Shown here piece after piece: positions 24,368 through 58,223 of a DNA stretch of 64,000 nt (position 1 is its first letter; the number at the start of each line of letters is the position of its first letter). The stretch is from a virus. The stretch lies in IMG/VR virus record IMGVR_UViG_3300048686_000449, positions 1 to 64,000 of that record, one strand, 5' to 3'. Position numbers and translations under genes: made by a program. Under the pieces are notes generated by a model. The model saw only the letters and a program-made list of their open reading frames with translations. It was not told where the DNA came from and ran no database searches.

Positions 24368-24443
24368 TGGCGAATTCGCGAGGATTTGAACCTCGACCCT
24401 TAGTTTTGGAGACTAAGATGCTACCATTACACCACGAACTCGC
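24368..24443 (-). tRNA. trnW: tRNA-Trp(CCA)
   Basis: Cloverleaf; anticodon arm TTAGT-CT-CCA-AA-ACTAA, GGTTCAAATCC, encoded CCA. Confidence 0.93.
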
Positions 24444-24463
24444 AAAGAGAAAACATAAAATGA

Positions 24464-24549
24464 CTAAATAGATGTGGGTCGCGATGTTATCAGCATCCAC
24501 CCACTCTAACACTATAGATTTAGGAGGAGTGCCAGCTATGTCTATTTAT
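24464..24549 (+). repeat. Endonuclease-associated structured element, copy A
   Basis: TAAATAGATGTGGGTCGCGATG...CATCCACCCACTCTAACAC...GGAGTG.CAGC..ATGTCTATTTA, shared with 55633-55720. Confidence 0.85.
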
Positions 24550-24593
24550 TCTACTAAAACTTATTCATTCGCATATCTCACGAGAGGTGGGAT

Positions 24594-25307
24594 ATGAACT
24601 ACAAAAAAGTTTACTTCTCTTTGATTGAGAAACGAAAAACCACTCCAGTTTTGGGATATTCCGAATCTCACCATATCACACCAAGAAGTCTAGGAGGTTC
24701 AGACGCTCCAGATAACATCGTTGAATTGACGGCGAGGGAGCACTTCTTCGCTCATCTACTTCTCACAAAAATACACAAAAGAGGTCCGGCGAAATATAAG
24801 ATGGTCAGAGCTTTTATTATGATGCTTTGTGTTGCGGGTCAAAATCAACAGAGATATATCTCATCAAAAAGATATGACCAATTACGAAAACAATTTTCTA
24901 TTGCGCAATCATTATCACAATCAGGCGAAAGAAATTCTCAGTTCGGAACTTGTTGGGTCGTTCACGATCTATTCGGTCCAAAAAGAATAGAAAAATCCCT
25001 ATTCTGTGAATATGTAGAACAGGGATGGTATCTTGGAAGAACTTTCAATTATATACAAGAAAAGAAAACGTCAGTTCAGATAAAAGAAAGAAGAAAACAA
25101 AAAACTCTAAAAAAGTATCCCAATCTTGATGAGTGGTATCGCATATATGATGCGAAAGGATTTGAAGAATTTGTTAGAATTACTGGATACCCTCATTCAA
25201 AACCTAATTTGGTTACGTTATTCGCAAAATATGTTCCGTCTTTTGTCCCACAAAATAGAAAAAGAAGAGGTTGGCTGGCGGGGCAGGCTTCGATCCTGCG
25301 ACATTAG
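24594..25307 (+). CDS. HNH homing endonuclease, antisense within the tRNA cluster
   Basis: ESHHITPRSLGGSDAPDNIVELTAREHFFAHLLL; GERNSQFGTCW; AT-rich. Confidence 0.88.
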   Translation: MNYKKVYFSLIEKRKTTPVLGYSESHHITPRSLGGSDAPDNIVELTAREHFFAHLLLTKIHKRGPAKYKMVRAFIMMLCVAGQNQQRYISSKRYDQLRKQFSIAQSLSQSGERNSQFGTCWVVHDLFGPKRIEKSLFCEYVEQGWYLGRTFNYIQEKKTSVQIKERRKQKTLKKYPNLDEWYRIYDAKGFEEFVRITGYPHSKPNLVTLFAKYVPSFVPQNRKRRGWLAGQASILRH

Positions 25308-25348
25308 GAGTAACAATCCTACGTTCGTACCATCTGAGCTACCCGACA
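25272..25348 (-). tRNA. trnN: tRNA-Asn(GTT)
   Basis: Anticodon arm TAGGA-TT-GTT-AC-TCCTA, discriminator G plus CCA; atypical T-loop ATCGAAG and one acceptor mismatch. Confidence 0.8.
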
Positions 25349-25365
25349 TCAGCACATCTTATAAT

Positions 25366-25440
25366 TGGTAGCGGGGGCTGGAATCGCACCAGCGACCTTT
25401 AGGTTATGAGCCTAACGAGCTACTCCTGCTCCACCCCGCT
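25366..25440 (-). tRNA. trnM: tRNA-Met(CAT)
   Basis: AGCGGGG/CCCCGCT acceptor, anticodon arm TTAGG-CT-CAT-AA-CCTAA, ACCA end; T-loop TGCGATT. Confidence 0.85.
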
Positions 25441-25465
25441 ATATTATATCTACAGACGCACTATT

Positions 25466-25617
25466 TAGTGGAATGGTGTTGGACTTGATACCAACTCTGG
25501 ACAGCCGCCGTTCTTCCAGACAAGTAGCCGAGGTGTTAAGCGGTATCCCGCAATCCACCTGTGCTTGCGCTCGATTCGTCGGTCTTCTATAGCACGTCCT
25601 TCCGTGCTGCCCATTCC
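25466..25617 (-). ncRNA. tRNA-like RNA with a large inserted domain
   Basis: GGAATGG/CCATTCC acceptor stem, AGCA-CGGAAGGACG-TGCT D-like arm, GTTGG-TATCAAGT-CCAAC T-like arm, multi-stem insert. Confidence 0.6.
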
Positions 25618-47539: not shown

Positions 47540-48090
47540 AAAAAATTCCCCCCTCCAGATAATCCTAATGCCTTTGCATAACGAGGAGTATTACATGCCC
47601 AATATGCAGCACTCGTTCGATCTTTCTGTGTAGAACATTTATGTCGTGCAGCGAATGACTTTCTTCGTTCAGGATTATTCATCTTTACACTTAATCCTGT
47701 GGTATCACCCCAGGTTACTTTTTTGACGCCACCATCTGGCTTGCGCACATACACATAAAACTTCTTAGGACCTCCGCGTTTTGGCTTATTTAATGGTGGG
47801 GTCGCTTCGTCTTCTTCCGCAATCATTGGACAATCCAATGGAACCATCGTTCCTTCATAGAGTTCAAATTCGCCAATATCAGTTTCTTCTAATAAGATTC
47901 GATCCAGTTCAGATAATTGAATCACACCCTCTAATTGTAATTCGCGAGCCGTCCGAAATAGTTCAAAATACTTTTCAGATCCTACGCGGAAAATATTTTC
48001 CTGAAGCGGAACTTGATTAGTGAGATGCCAATCAAGTGCTTCCGCAATAGTTTGATCGGGTGCTGTATAATAGAATTTAAAAGATTTCAT
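47533..48090 (-). CDS. Conserved T4-like hypothetical protein
   Basis: LNKPKRGGPKKFYVYV...RRKSFAARHKC...AAYWAC. Confidence 0.7.
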   Translation of the reverse strand: MKSFKFYYTAPDQTIAEALDWHLTNQVPLQENIFRVGSEKYFELFRTARELQLEGVIQLSELDRILLEETDIGEFELYEGTMVPLDCPMIAEEDEATPPLNKPKRGGPKKFYVYVRKPDGGVKKVTWGDTTGLSVKMNNPERRKSFAARHKCSTQKDRTSAAYWACNTPRYAKALGLSGGGNFFW

Positions 48091-49940
48091 GATTTCTTTA
48101 TTAAAAACGTTTTACTTTTGACTGGAGCTCCCGCTCGTCCACCCATTTTCATATTCCATTCATCCTTATCAGGACCCCATTGTTGTGGTGTCGTTTCATC
48201 ATACCCATAGGTGGTTTCTTGCATTTTCTTTTTCACTTGTGCAAATGACAATTTCTGTTTAGGCGACTGTTCTAAGGTTTTCAATTTCGTATAGTAATCG
48301 GGACGTTCTTTCAAATGATCTAATGCAATCTTGAGTGCAATATCCTGATCTTTCGTGTGTTCCATTTCTACTTCAATGCCCATTTCTAACTGCGCCATAA
48401 TAGACTTGTGGGAGACTCCATGTTTTTTCGCTAACTGGTCAATCATGGTTTCGCTTTGCTCCTCGATTATCTGCGATTCTTTGATACTGCGTTTTGGATA
48501 GGAATCTACGGGTATCAAACGATTTTCGTGAAGATGATGTGTGATCAGACCGTGTGTGCCATACCGTCCAAATCCATAATATCGCAATCCTAGTTCAGCA
48601 ATTTCATCAGAGAGATCTGGTCTTGGATGATCGGGAAGTGCAGGACGAATTGATTCAAAAAGCTGGTATGCGATTGGATCTTGGGAGTCGCGTGTAAGAA
48701 ACTGATCAATGCGATGACGAATTTGCGTCAATTCAATGTTTTTTGATTCTGTAATCGTCAAATCAATCTGGGGATTCAACAGATCAATTGAGTTATCAAA
48801 TACAATCAAATCTTCTTCAAACAAATCTTTAAAACGATCTAAGGCTTGTTGAGATCGTTCCCATTTTTCATGACGAATTGATTCTGTCATACATCGACCA
48901 CCGCGATGCCCACGAAGTTGATTACGATGTTGAGAACTTTCATCTGTAGTACTCACAAATGTCATCGCTGTGCTATATCCGACTGACTCCAATAGTTCAG
49001 CAATATGCACAATCTTATCCGCATCCTCAGCAGATCCGTTGACAATAATTCCTTGTGACCCTTCCAAGACCAACCGCGATCTCAAATCTGAGATCATCAA
49101 TTTAGAAAGAGATTTTGTGGTTGAGTGCATCAAATGATCATAGATTTTTTCTGCACTTATTTCTGTCAATCCACATCCCTCAAAGACTCGTTTCAAAAGA
49201 AAATCTTTACCTGATCCTGGTCCGCCAACCAAAAACATGGCTTTATAGAGAGGTGGTTCAGGTGTATGAACTGATTCGGTAAGTTTCATGCTATGACGCA
49301 CATCATGATAGAGTTCTTTGGCATGTTGATCCGAGACATGTGTGGGAACACCTTTACGAAATTCTTTGAAGTTGCCCGACTTCGCATGTTCTCGCATCTT
49401 TGATGCACTCATACCTTCGGCTCCTTCAGCATCGGGGTCTCTCTTTCCCGCTGACACTACTTTGATGGACTTGAACTTGTATTCTTTTCCATTATACTTG
49501 TTCAGGAGTTGCTTATACTGATGCGTGCGATCACTTCCTGCGACAAAGACTAAATGTTGATGCCCTGCCTGGTTCAATCGTTTGGCATGATGAATCAGTG
49601 TTGGCTCGTCTTTTGATGCAGCGGTAATCTTAGTGCCAGGAAAGTATCGCTTGAGATGCTTTATTTTTTGACTTGGCGACAGTGGATTCTTTTTAGAGTC
49701 CTGAGAATGGGAGACGACGAGTTCTTTATGATGACCCTCACCCACCTCATGGATCTTATCGACGAGTTTAGCGTGTCCAGTCGTTGGGGGATTCAGCCGC
49801 CCAAATGCCAGAACCGCTGTTGATTCTTTACCTTCAGAATACAGTTTCGGAAAAACTTCGGTGTAGGGCTGCGGAACTACTGAACTGGTGGCAGTGTTCG
49901 CTTTAGGGGAAAATATAGGTTTAGTGCTAAATTTTGACAT
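48087..49940 (-). CDS. HxGH nucleotidyltransferase + P-loop kinase + small C-terminal domain fusion
   Basis: FGRLNPPTTGH, GSDR, MSASKMR; LVGGPGSGKD; GIEVEMEH...DHLKERPDYY. Confidence 0.8.
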   Translation of the reverse strand: MSKFSTKPIFSPKANTATSSVVPQPYTEVFPKLYSEGKESTAVLAFGRLNPPTTGHAKLVDKIHEVGEGHHKELVVSHSQDSKKNPLSPSQKIKHLKRYFPGTKITAASKDEPTLIHHAKRLNQAGHQHLVFVAGSDRTHQYKQLLNKYNGKEYKFKSIKVVSAGKRDPDAEGAEGMSASKMREHAKSGNFKEFRKGVPTHVSDQHAKELYHDVRHSMKLTESVHTPEPPLYKAMFLVGGPGSGKDFLLKRVFEGCGLTEISAEKIYDHLMHSTTKSLSKLMISDLRSRLVLEGSQGIIVNGSAEDADKIVHIAELLESVGYSTAMTFVSTTDESSQHRNQLRGHRGGRCMTESIRHEKWERSQQALDRFKDLFEEDLIVFDNSIDLLNPQIDLTITESKNIELTQIRHRIDQFLTRDSQDPIAYQLFESIRPALPDHPRPDLSDEIAELGLRYYGFGRYGTHGLITHHLHENRLIPVDSYPKRSIKESQIIEEQSETMIDQLAKKHGVSHKSIMAQLEMGIEVEMEHTKDQDIALKIALDHLKERPDYYTKLKTLEQSPKQKLSFAQVKKKMQETTYGYDETTPQQWGPDKDEWNMKMGGRAGAPVKSKTFLIKKS

Positions 49941-53984: not shown

Positions 53985-54597
53985 CGCGATGTACCTTATT
54001 ATGACGCACAATAGCGTTTCCGTTACAGACCAATTTACAAGTTTTTCTCACACGAAGAGACCACTCAATATCTTCTGCTGATCCCCACATCATCTGTTCA
54101 TTCAGTGGATATTGAATCGCAATTTTCTTTTTTAGAAGATAGTATCCCCCTGAGATGTACATATACTGCGTCAGTTCCCATTCATTATAATCAATCGGTG
54201 TATAACGAGGGATGGTCGGATGATCCCACATGACCCAATCGGTGAAGTGGCGTTTTCCCGTAATCAACAGCTGCTGATTGGAACAAATATCCCAGTCCTC
54301 ACCAAAAGTTAAAAATTGATCATACCAGTTCCGATCAAAGACATAATAATCATGCATCAAGACAATATTGTCATACTCAGCTTGTTGACAAAGAATATTT
54401 TTCTTTCGAGTAATCCAACCAGGGCGAACAGATTCATCAAATCCAAGACACCGCACCCGTCCATTTTTTCCATCTCGACCAGGACCAATAATCAAGACTT
54501 CATAATGAGGGATGTGTAAATTGCGAATGGAGTTGACGATTTCATCCAGTCGCCCTTCATTAGAATAATCAGTAGTGATTGCAAAGGTAAAATTCAT
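53974..54597 (-). CDS. Glycosyltransferase (GT-A-like)
   Basis: WITRKKN, MHDY, EDIEWS. Confidence 0.7.
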   Translation of the reverse strand: MNFTFAITTDYSNEGRLDEIVNSIRNLHIPHYEVLIIGPGRDGKNGRVRCLGFDESVRPGWITRKKNILCQQAEYDNIVLMHDYYVFDRNWYDQFLTFGEDWDICSNQQLLITGKRHFTDWVMWDHPTIPRYTPIDYNEWELTQYMYISGGYYLLKKKIAIQYPLNEQMMWGSAEDIEWSLRVRKTCKLVCNGNAIVRHNKVHRDAH

Positions 54598-55460
54598 TCA
54601 GCATACTTCGCGTCAATCATCGACTTCCATTCTGGCACTCGATCATATTGATGCACAAGATAGTAGGGATCACCATGTTCAGTACAAATCAATCCATCTT
54701 TGAGAATTGGTTCGCCCTCAGTCAGGAAGGGACGAAACTCAGACACTTTATTAGGATCTTTGGTGGTACCTAACTGCGCAGCCCATGCTTCATTAGCAGC
54801 GGTGAATCGAGTGATGCTTTTATAGGCGCGAGTATTTAACAATATATTTACAGCCGCTTGATCTGCTCCTCCGCCACCAGGAACATGAAGAGGTGCGCCT
54901 AAACAGGTTAAGTAAACATTCAAAAAGAAATCCAGAAGATGAGAGAATCGACCAGAGATAGTCCCAGCATTATAAATGAGATTATTCTGAAACTGATCAT
55001 AGATTAGAGGCCCAAATGATTGATAAAGATTATTCCGACCCCATGGTTCATCTTTATAATGAATCGATTCACAAGCCACATTGATCTTCCACGGATCAAT
55101 AAGATTATCTTCAAGCCACTCTGAAGGATTGCGCTGAAAGATCACATCTTTGACATCCGTTGCGATCACATACCGATAGTCAGATTTGTTTTCCAGACGA
55201 TTAAGAAAATACCAAAGATGCAGAAAGCGTTCTCGCACGATATTGAATTCACCTGAATATACGAGATCTTTCGTTTCTGGATCTTGATTGAATGCAAGAA
55301 TCGCATAGCCACGCCGTGCAAGTTCCTGCGCCACGTCGAACTTGATATTATAACACAGCATCGCCTTGGTTCCTTTGAACCCACAGCGATCTAATGAATT
55401 GACCCAATTCTTAATTTGAGAAAAAGAATACCCTGTTACTGCACCAATCACAAGATCCAT
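54594..55460 (-). CDS. Glycosyltransferase-like protein
   Basis: RF...TDVKDVIFQ, NAGT, DQA, HQYDR. Confidence 0.7.
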   Translation of the reverse strand: MDLVIGAVTGYSFSQIKNWVNSLDRCGFKGTKAMLCYNIKFDVAQELARRGYAILAFNQDPETKDLVYSGEFNIVRERFLHLWYFLNRLENKSDYRYVIATDVKDVIFQRNPSEWLEDNLIDPWKINVACESIHYKDEPWGRNNLYQSFGPLIYDQFQNNLIYNAGTISGRFSHLLDFFLNVYLTCLGAPLHVPGGGGADQAAVNILLNTRAYKSITRFTAANEAWAAQLGTTKDPNKVSEFRPFLTEGEPILKDGLICTEHGDPYYLVHQYDRVPEWKSMIDAKYAE

Positions 55461-55618: not shown

Positions 55619-55632
55619 AAAAACTCAAATAT

Positions 55633-55720
55633 TATAAATAGATGTGGGTCGCGATGCTACTAACATCCACCCACTCTAACACCATAGCTTTAGAAGGGAG
55701 TGTCAGCATGTCTATTTATA
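55633..55720 (+). repeat. Endonuclease-associated structured element, copy B
   Basis: TATAAATAGA...TCTATTTATA terminal inverted repeat; interior matches 24464-24549. Confidence 0.85.
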
Positions 55721-56370
55721 ATACTACAAACAACATCTCAAGTCAAGAAACCCAATACAAGTTCTATGTCTACGCTTATCTGAGAAAGCGAAACGGAACT
55801 CCATATTACATCGGAAAAGGTAAAGGTCGTCGTGTATATGCTACTCATAAAGGAATTTCTATTCCTTCAGATCGTTCTAAAATTATATTTCTAGAAAAGA
55901 ATCTAAGTGAAGTTGGTGCGTTCGCATTAGAAAGAAGATATATCAGATGGTATGGAAGAAAAGATCTGGGAACAGGAATCCTTCTCAATAAAACAGACGG
56001 CGGAGAGGGAACAGATAACATCTCACCTGAAACAAGAAAAAAGCGATCAGAATCAAGAAAAAGATGGTGTAAAGAAAATCCAAATTCAAATCCAATGAAT
56101 AATCCAAAATATCGCGAAAAAATCAGCAAATCTTTGACAGGAAGACATCATTCACCAGAAACTATAGAAAAACTCAAAAAGTCTCATAAAGGAATGACTG
56201 GAAGAAGACACTCTGATGAAACACGAGCGAAAATATCAGAAACTAAGAAAAGAAAATGGCAAAATCCAGAATTCAGACAAAAAATGATGAGTGTGCTTCA
56301 AGGAACAGAATATAGAGAAAAAATGTCCAAAACTATGAAGGAACTCTTGTCAACGCAAGAATCTTCTTGA
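55708..56370 (+). CDS. GIY-YIG homing endonuclease with NUMOD3-like repeats
   Basis: FYVYAYLR...PYYIGKG, E...[10 protein letters not shown]; HSPETIEK / [10 protein letters not shown] repeats. Start set at MSIY after GGAG. Confidence 0.88.
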
Positions 56371-56983: not shown

Positions 56984-58210
56984 TTATTTCTCCCAATTTT
57001 TGGCGGATTGAAAATTGGCCCTGGAAAAAATCAGTCTGTCAATCAATTTTACAGCATTACCTTTCTTCAAGTTCACCGCCACAAAGCCTTCTGGTGTCGT
57101 GGCTCTGAACCCAGTATCGGTGCGCAGGAAGGTTCCGAGACTCTTGATCTGTTGTATTTTTCTGACAATCACCAACTTAGCTTGAACTAAGGCATTCATC
57201 AATTCAATCATGACGATTAATGAGGCATAGTTCGTGCGCAAAAAGCCAATCGTTTGCGTCTTTTCTTTCGTGCGATTCGCTTTTGTTTCAGCTTTCTTCG
57301 CACTCAAAATCTCTTGATTCAGTTCTGTTTCATAGGTCCGAATAAACTGATTGATAAACAGAGGTGGCTTCTCAATACTCTGCCCCTGACGAATTTGCGC
57401 ATTCTGAAACTTTTTGAGTGCAGCGATAATCTTTTCCTGAACCAATAATTGACCCATAAACCGTGAAGGAAGCTGTTTCACTAATCTCTGCGCCTCAACA
57501 ATATGATCTGTCACATCCTGCGTTTCTTCTTTGGTGAAGGTCGCGAGTCCACTTTCATCGACAAATGAGGCATCACGGAACCAGACCGATTTGATATGAT
57601 GAAGTGAACCGATATCGACGTTGAATGAGGCTTGCATATCCGCCATCGTTTTCCCATGATAGGAGGTATGGAACACAATTCCAATTTCAGCCTCAAGCAT
57701 CCGTTTGATCAGCGTTGAGTCCTTCGGGACCGCATAGACAATCGTATTTGGTTGGAAGGTGTAATAGTGCTCGCCATCGATGGTTTCTGATTTCAGATCG
57801 CCTTTGGTGAATAACATATCACCTTGCAGCACACCCTTGATGCCAATCTCCGAGAGATATCGCAGCGCCACCTTGAGTTTCTTATTCAATCCTTCGGCGG
57901 GGTGATTTTTATCAATATCGGCATCAGTGAAGTTCAACTTCGGCGATTTCGCAAACACTGACTTGGTGCCGACGAAAAACTTTTTGGATTCAGGATCAAT
58001 ACCGCAAACGATAGCAGGTGCGCCATCCCACTTGGTCGTGATATTGATTTGTTGATCAACATCACCTGACAACATATCGCGCAATGACCGCAAGAAATTG
58101 ACGGCATCATTGGCGCCAGCCAAGCCACGATTCAACACCTCATCTTCGAGGTGTTCCAGATGGACGTTTTTACCTTCTTTAGATTCTTTGAGGAACTGAG
58201 AGAATTTCAT
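56984..58210 (-). CDS. Conserved T4-like protein with ligase-like motifs (DUF6267-like)
   Basis: HLEHLED, TKWDG, QGDMLF, PEGFV, VKLIDR; capsid-targeting-like start MKFSQFLKE. Confidence 0.7.
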   Translation of the reverse strand: MKFSQFLKESKEGKNVHLEHLEDEVLNRGLAGANDAVNFLRSLRDMLSGDVDQQINITTKWDGAPAIVCGIDPESKKFFVGTKSVFAKSPKLNFTDADIDKNHPAEGLNKKLKVALRYLSEIGIKGVLQGDMLFTKGDLKSETIDGEHYYTFQPNTIVYAVPKDSTLIKRMLEAEIGIVFHTSYHGKTMADMQASFNVDIGSLHHIKSVWFRDASFVDESGLATFTKEETQDVTDHIVEAQRLVKQLPSRFMGQLLVQEKIIAALKKFQNAQIRQGQSIEKPPLFINQFIRTYETELNQEILSAKKAETKANRTKEKTQTIGFLRTNYASLIVMIELMNALVQAKLVIVRKIQQIKSLGTFLRTDTGFRATTPEGFVAVNLKKGNAVKLIDRLIFSRANFQSAKNWEK

Positions 58211-58223
58211 CACGTGATGACCT

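Follow-up and report, generated by a model that had tools for sequence, protein, structure and literature searches.

Why should two unrelated homing endonuclease genes of one phage be headed by the same short element, and what would such an element do for them? Mosaicism in T4-like phages is driven to a major extent by free-standing homing endonucleases; to our knowledge, how these are restrained has been worked out only for a few genes of T4 and Aeh1, in which sense-strand hairpins and autorepression are responsible. We examined the question in a 64,000-nt stretch of viral DNA (the window; positions 1 to 64,000 of IMG/VR record IMGVR_UViG_3300048686_000449). The contig that hosts the elements is a 75.9 kb viral contig representing a half-complete genome. 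The phage is a freshwater T4-like myovirus whose clamp loader shares 56% identity with the one from Methylophilales phage Melnitz and about 54% with those of cyanophages, and its DNA is present in lake and reservoir metagenomes of many studies. By a crude ORF call for the genome, 19 of 119 ORFs are on the plus strand.

A preliminary description of the window had placed one and the same element ahead of both nuclease genes, and this held up: the 22-nt core TAAATAGATGTGGGTCGCGATG is found at exactly two positions of the window, 24465 and 55635, against 0 occurrences expected from shuffled sequences, and BLAST within the genome aligned the two copies, here called A and B, at 86% identity over about 95 nt. 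The shared part extends from the TAAATA motif through the TATTTAT that follows the ATG, i.e., 24464-24549 for copy A and 55633-55720 for copy B (Table 1). The span originally given for copy A, 24464-24597, stands through position 24549; the remaining 24550-24597 is the rest of a 19-codon relic ORF and lies outside the repeat. The late-promoter-like motifs described on opposite strands at the two ends of the element are present in both A and B. A third copy (copy C, 73% identity; G000:C1:69209-69292, minus strand) is found outside the window on the same contig, where it heads a second GIY-YIG-type gene that has a gp62-like clamp-loader gene on one side and a regA-like gene on the other. Copies A, B and C all terminate in ATG TCT ATT TAT.

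Table 1. Coordinates of cassette copies A and B, their predicted transcripts and the adjoining genes (window positions).
Feature	Position	Strand	Basis or remark
Late-promoter-like CTAAATA for nuclease transcript, copy A	24464..24470	+	read in sequence
Hairpin H1, copy A	24474..24504	-	6-bp outer stem, single G-C between two one-base bulges, variable inner stem
Hairpin H2, copy A	24506..24535	-	8-bp stem CUGG...UUAG with G.U pairs
ATAAATA, predicted antisense promoter, copy A	24543..24549	-	within relic-ORF codons 2-4
Predicted antisense RNA, copy A	24460..24537	-	inferred from promoter geometry and fold strand
19-codon relic ORF MSIYSTKTYSFAYLTRGGI	24538..24597	+	TGA overlaps HNH ATG (ATGA)
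HNH homing endonuclease, 237 aa, copy A cargo	24594..25307	+	phrog_655 'homing endonuclease', E 2.7e-42
tRNA-Trp	24368..24441	-	ARAGORN and Rfam tRNA; first gene downstream of predicted antisense promoter A
TATAAATA, late-promoter motif for nuclease transcript, copy B	55633..55640	+	read in sequence
Hairpin H1, copy B	55644..55674	-	sequence and covariation
Hairpin H2, copy B	55676..55706	-	sequence and covariation
TATAAATA, predicted antisense promoter, copy B	55713..55720	-	within GIY-YIG gene codons 2-5
Predicted antisense RNA, copy B	55630..55707	-	inferred as for copy A
GIY-YIG-type (seg-like) homing endonuclease with NUMOD3 repeats, 220 aa, copy B cargo	55708..56370	+	NUMOD3 E 8.9e-7

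The relic ORF of copy A looks like the N-terminus of a B/C-type GIY-YIG gene (consensus MSIY...FYVYAYLRK, alignment A2), and copy A is, as we read it, a cargo swap in which this relic N-terminus is followed by the HNH gene. The HNH product matched the Pfam HNH model at 17.5 bits, below cutoff; it is 45% identical to the HNH protein of another locus (L013), there joined directly to the cassette as MGIY..., and is unrelated to the copy B GIY-YIG protein. A domain swap with a common DNA-binding tail between the two nucleases of the window was rejected, as there is no similarity between them. At its 3' end the HNH ORF runs 36 nt into tRNA-Asn (25272-25348, minus strand; overlap at window 25272-25307), and three phage tRNA genes, for Trp, Asn and Met, flank the nuclease gene, an arrangement reminiscent of segB within the tRNA cluster of T4.

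In two lake/reservoir metagenomes the dominant strain joins position 24441, the end of tRNA-Trp, to 25596, and this variant is without cassette A, the HNH gene, tRNA-Asn and tRNA-Met (window 24442-25595). The metagenome depth was about 3.5-4.6 over the HNH stretch vs about 100 in the flanks; the low depth and the junction together indicate that the block of cassette A and HNH gene is a minority insertion in nature. A rarer metagenome variant breaks directly after ATGTCTATTTAT, with 24549 joined to 25353. Lake metatranscriptome contigs of this phage cover the tRNAs and flanks, with the cassette and HNH gene outside the coverage.

The copy B cargo matches phrog_15526 and phrog_314 ('homing endonuclease'), its family profile gave weak matches to GIY-YIG structures (E 0.005), and it is 47% identical to the cargo of copy C. 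Copy B is located within a minus-strand sugar-modification cluster (cytidylyltransferase, glycosyltransferase-like; 48087-49940, 54594-55460 and 56984-58213), and several of the sugar-modification genes near it have CTAAATA or ATAAATA in front. A sigma-70-like motif, TTGACT-17-TATTAT (10 of 12), on the minus strand at window 55718-55746 overlaps the minus-strand TATAAATA of copy B; this motif could add early antisense transcription.

Elsewhere in IMG/VR, the H1-arm pattern (GTGGGTCGC...CCCACTCTAAC) was found at 24 loci with the same layout, and a second pattern, drawn from the commonest H1 variant (GTAGTT...AACTAC), at 120 loci at least. Relatives of the B/C-type nuclease are encoded on at least 589 IMG/VR stretches, and a covariance model built from the first-pattern set (24 loci) was run on the best 80 of these 589 or more GIY-YIG-homolog loci and detected the cassette in 58, always on the strand of the gene and with two cassettes in some loci. 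Cassette pairs lying within a few kb on the same contig (L039, L041, L042, L069, L100, L135, L196) indicate that cassette-bearing nuclease genes cluster. One cultured carrier is Pseudoalteromonas phage vB_Psh_XG4 (PP712099, cassette at about 56127-56220; 39.7 bits with the covariance model): a default model search of five isolate phage records returned none, and cmsearch with the filters off then gave the XG4 copy, so that the default search is insensitive. The model gave nothing in four cyanophage loci with homologous GIY-YIG genes, and when the loci and the cassette itself were compared by megablast and blastn with 50,697 isolate phage records, the cassette had no match. Cassettes in bacterial genomes were rejected, since 0 of five pattern matches were confirmed by the model and about 25 were expected by chance. 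An Rfam release 15 cmscan of both strands of three loci (E<=1) returned only tRNAs and two sub-threshold chance matches.

The cargo types found behind the cassette include at least four GIY-YIG subfamilies, at least two HNH types, and nuclease-less NUMOD3 ORFs. Each of the 63 longer second-pattern cargo ORFs with an annotated PHROG match belongs to homing or HNH endonuclease families, and Pfam matches on the cargos were to GIY-YIG, HNH, NUMOD3, and the I-TevI and I-HmuI DNA-binding parts. All classifiable cargos are homing-endonuclease-type ORFs (GIY-YIG, HNH, or a NUMOD3 part only), and nearly all begin M-x-I-Y. The earlier proposal that the element is a portable module accepting varied nuclease cargo is borne out by these loci, and we read the cassette, about 85 bases long, as a portable control module of free-standing homing-endonuclease genes in aquatic T4-like phages.

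Several loci depart from the common layout. Cargos of 116-168 aa that comprise NUMOD3 and the C-terminal module only, without a catalytic domain (L004, L014, L015, L017, L019, L021, L009, L010), may be nuclease-less derivatives. Two decayed forms were seen: one (L027:1944-2080, minus strand) keeps the hairpins with an 18-codon ORF only and is without the TATTTA box, and the other (L094, about 1940-2010) has both boxes 22 nt apart and is without hairpins. The cassette-linked GIY-YIG ORF at L011:3903 and at L018:5841 has CTG instead of an ATG start (CAGCCTGACTATCTAT). In a further subgroup (L042, L046, L086, L107) the start codon lies inside the H2 arm (CATCATGACCAG) and CCAG is coding; these cassettes score low or below the model threshold.

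Between the two boxes lie hairpins H1 and H2, whose antisense-strand forms are designated H1' and H2'. The 6-bp outer stem of H1 is of many types (GUGGGU/ACCCAC, GUAGUU/AACUAC, GUCGGU/ACCGAC, GCUAGU/ACUAGC, and others); within it a single pair, G-C or in some members A-U, stands between two conserved one-base bulges, with a variable inner stem beyond. The stem of H2 is 8 bp long. On the sense strand, the Shine-Dalgarno sequence of the nuclease gene falls in the loop and one arm of H2; on the minus strand, the complement of this sequence lies in the loop of H2'. As the preliminary description had proposed as a check, covariation was looked for in the homologs, and both hairpins covary strongly: the covariation score of the antisense alignment was 0.603 vs 0.207 for shuffles and at most 0.165 for slid partners, 15 of 19 pairs have changed on both sides (MAFFT-only antisense alignment), and in H1 all 11 of 11 stem pairs covary with 99.2% paired (antisense alignment).

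The strand on which this fold is kept was judged from 45 cassettes, taken as antisense-strand sequences and aligned with MAFFT only. Stem cells were paired in 98.0% on the antisense strand vs 89.1% on the sense strand, and G.U cells numbered 83 antisense vs 7 sense, or 39 vs 7 when the invariant pair was left out, with the proviso that related sequences inflate all of these cell counts. The sense-strand stem cells that do not pair are almost all A.C, which is G.U on the opposite strand; the A.C/G.U cell at the third pair of H2 is invariant, this pair being G.U in 44 of the 45 sequences, and the fourth pair is AU in 24 and GU in 16. RNAalifold gave -23.99 kcal/mol for the antisense alignment vs -16.65 kcal/mol for the mirrored sense alignment, and the single-sequence minimum free energy (MFE) was lower on the antisense strand in 74 of 82 cassettes (means of -17.3 vs -13.1 kcal/mol; p=6e-14). 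On the G.U bias, the pairing fraction, the RNAalifold energies and the strand preference of the MFE, we assign the selected fold to the antisense RNA, i.e., the fold under selection is, by this comparative evidence, that of an RNA from the strand opposite to the nuclease gene. The second hairpin had been described as pairing with the ribosome binding site; this does not survive the comparison, as the sense strand is not the one on which the structure is selected.

The upstream TAAATA, 3-5 nt ahead of H1, is exact in 75 of 84 family members and lies directly upstream of the nuclease gene, as in T4-type late-promoter systems. The downstream TATTTA, which on the minus strand reads (A/G)TAAATA, matches exactly in 60 of the 84 and with a single mismatch in another 17, mostly 6 nt from CAG (range 5-7); the minus-strand TAAATA is accordingly less strictly kept than the sense promoter. 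The downstream box is read in three frames, ATG-NNT-ATT-TAT (xIY), ATG-TAT-TTA-C (YL) and ATG-RTA-TTT-AC (I/V-F-T), which argues for a constraint on the nucleotides and not on the protein. Among homologous genes TATTTA is present in 40 of 52 with a cassette vs 3 of 17 without one (p=2e-5), and the cassette-less relatives have a plain late promoter and Shine-Dalgarno sequence without the box. CTAAATA and ATAAATA motifs also stand in front of several other genes of this genome, and the late promoter of marine T4-like phages is NATAAATA (PMC2984593).

The reading that we favour, with a probability of about 0.55, is that the two face-to-face late promoters yield a nuclease mRNA together with a structured cis-antisense RNA that restrains the nuclease; this figure is for the reading as a whole, in which we infer the firing of both boxes, the ends of the antisense RNA and the repression. 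The sense/antisense RNA pair suggested in the preliminary description has thereby become the best reading, with the fold now placed on the antisense strand and with both promoters predicted. The TAAATA motifs face each other across about 70 bp that contain both hairpins. From the left promoter, the nuclease mRNA would begin at H1 or just within it; from the right promoter, on the opposite strand within nuclease codons 2-4, the antisense RNA would begin at the foot of H2'. The start positions are predicted by analogy with T4 late promoters. For copy A the predicted 5' end of the antisense RNA is near 24537/24536, from where the RNA would pass through H2' before H1', with tRNA-Trp 23 nt further on; by this geometry, and if the promoter fires, the RNA would start 1-2 nt from the AUG and cover the Shine-Dalgarno sequence and AUG. 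It would fold into two stable stem-loops fully complementary to the nuclease mRNA leader including the Shine-Dalgarno sequence, with the G.U pairs holding the antisense RNA folded and leaving the mRNA side looser, and when the two RNAs pair, translation would be blocked or cleavage triggered (or both), such that the nuclease stays low.

Some parts of this proposed control are less firm. A terminator downstream of H1' was found neither at copy A nor at copy B, where H1' is followed only by A-NN-UAUUUAU, and without a canonical terminator the antisense RNA could be longer than a small RNA. Promoter interference, and not RNA pairing, might also be the main effect of two late promoters that converge from a distance of 70 bp. 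Bulged bases in the stems of antisense RNAs such as CopA aid fast pairing and protect against RNase III; the conserved bulges of H1' could act like CopA-type bulges, which we offer only as a lead. The H1 and H2 bases are nearly identical and common to many unrelated homing endonucleases, and it is conceivable, if unlikely, that the cassette encodes a trans-acting antisense RNA which silences the nucleases behind other cassette copies, whether on its own genome or on that of a co-infecting phage. We found no evidence at these loci for a nuclease-guiding noncoding RNA.

The minus-strand TAAATA could instead be an outward promoter, with H2'-H1' as a stabilising 5' leader, that relieves polarity on the minus-strand phage genes lying downstream, i.e., tRNA-Trp for copy A and a small ORF plus the glycosyltransferase cluster for copy B; insertion of the nuclease would then be harmless and its loss costly. 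This accords with a left neighbour that runs opposite to the nuclease at roughly two loci in three (56 vs 27, and 40 vs 21 in a second tally) and starts 1-75 nt from the cassette, with the absence of a terminator after H1' noted above, and with the promoters for neighbouring genes that are embedded in T4 segG, segA, segE, mobB and mobC (PMC2988022). However, where the left neighbour is co-oriented, and there is nothing to drive, the box is still exact in 17 of 21 loci with an antisense energy bias of 4.2 kcal/mol, compared with 21 of 40 and 4.5 kcal/mol where it is on the opposite strand, and the conserved two-hairpin fold with its fixed bulges is left unexplained. The outward promoter of the preliminary description is therefore possible but weakened, since box and antisense fold are equally kept with a co-oriented neighbour, and as a full account we consider polarity relief rather improbable. 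Polarity relief and antisense control are not mutually exclusive, and the two roles may coexist.

A gate on the sense strand, of the T4 gene e / I-TevI type, appears quite unlikely to us. Here the UAAAUA of a read-through transcript would pair with the UAUUUA after the AUG and hide the start, late transcripts would begin inside this helix and be translated, and H1 and H2 would serve as scaffolds. Such gating is the paradigm in T4 e, I-TevI/II/III and Aeh1 mobE, and probably in segB (PMC3014915, PMC2988022); MFE folds of copies B and C do form the closing helix, and accessibility of the start region rises from 0.47 to 0.56 in the late form. The fold is, however, selected on the other strand, and the terminal inverted repeats that had been described as closing the element over the start codon do not make up a conserved helix: it consists of six A-U pairs with almost no element-specific covariation (-4.77 kcal/mol for native pairs vs -4.36 kcal/mol for cross-paired arms, p=0.02), and accessibility of the start site in the long RNA (0.47) is no lower than in a shuffled-upstream control (0.495, p=0.17). 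The helix is convincing in some copies only and was rejected as a conserved RNA feature across the family. In addition, two thirds of the cassettes face away from the upstream neighbour, so that read-through RNA should be scarce. Least probable, and in our judgement very improbable, is that the cassette acts as a processing site or insulator in a long minus-strand read-through RNA, or as a recombination hot spot in DNA without any RNA role. The cargo junctions do cluster at the box, where the cargos have their M-x-I-Y start, and the rarer metagenome variant breaks there, at 24549; but compensatory changes with G.U tolerance on one strand are not predicted by a role in DNA only, and if the element were a processing site, the constant spacing of a promoter-like box would be left unexplained.

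For the antisense control that we favour, the closest parallel is RNA-OUT of IS10/Tn10, a 69-nt RNA antisense to the region where translation of the transposase begins (PMC5006887). As proposed for the cassette, RNA-OUT comes from an opposite-strand promoter near the 5' end of a selfish element's enzyme gene, firing outward, and is a short, stably folded antisense RNA complementary to the start region of the enzyme mRNA (PMC5006887); it can also act in trans, which is relevant with three cassette copies in this genome. The cassette differs in that its enzyme is a homing endonuclease and not a transposase, its promoters are T4-late-like and not sigma-70, it has two hairpins and not one, the overlap is the whole leader (about 55-60 nt), no terminator is seen, and its RNA is predicted. 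In cyanophage S-PM2 the CfrI antisense RNA runs opposite to a homing endonuclease gene (Millard et al. 2010, cited in PMC2984593); CfrI resembles the proposed cassette RNA in being antisense to a free-standing homing endonuclease gene of a T4-like phage and co-expressed with it, whereas it differs in its length of about 225 nt and in linking the endonuclease gene to psbA. T4 e, I-TevI/II/III, Aeh1 mobE and T4 segB share with the cassette a late promoter and structured RNA around the ribosome binding site (PMC3014915, PMC2988022), and segB, like copy A, sits in a tRNA cluster; in e, I-TevI, mobE and segB, however, the sense-strand fold hides the ribosome binding site in long transcripts, whereas the fold of the cassette is selected on the antisense strand.

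A full-text literature search found no paper describing such a cassette. The PeSL (promoter-early stem-loop) units, which Arbiol et al. are said to have described in 2010, are reportedly mobile regulatory cassettes of T4-type phages that carry sigma-70 early promoters and terminator hairpins and flank small ORFs of hyperplastic regions. PeSL and the present cassette are alike as small repeated promoter-plus-stem-loop units at gene junctions that accompany modular shuffling; unlike PeSL, the cassette has late-type motifs on both strands and no terminator, and it is tied to homing endonucleases.

If the antisense reading is true, these phages would have a different solution to the restraint of homing endonucleases, its principle borrowed from insertion sequences. 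A common, exchangeable cassette would give a late promoter and a structured antisense RNA to any nuclease gene placed behind it, and the junction at the M-x-I-Y box would explain how nuclease cargo is swapped. With hundreds of members and no counterpart in Rfam, the cassette is a candidate RNA family, and the cultured phage vB_Psh_XG4 provides a system for testing it. Should the trans-acting reading also be true, competition among selfish nucleases in a large aquatic clade of T4-like phages would be governed by an RNA-based layer of 'multicopy inhibition' or immunity.
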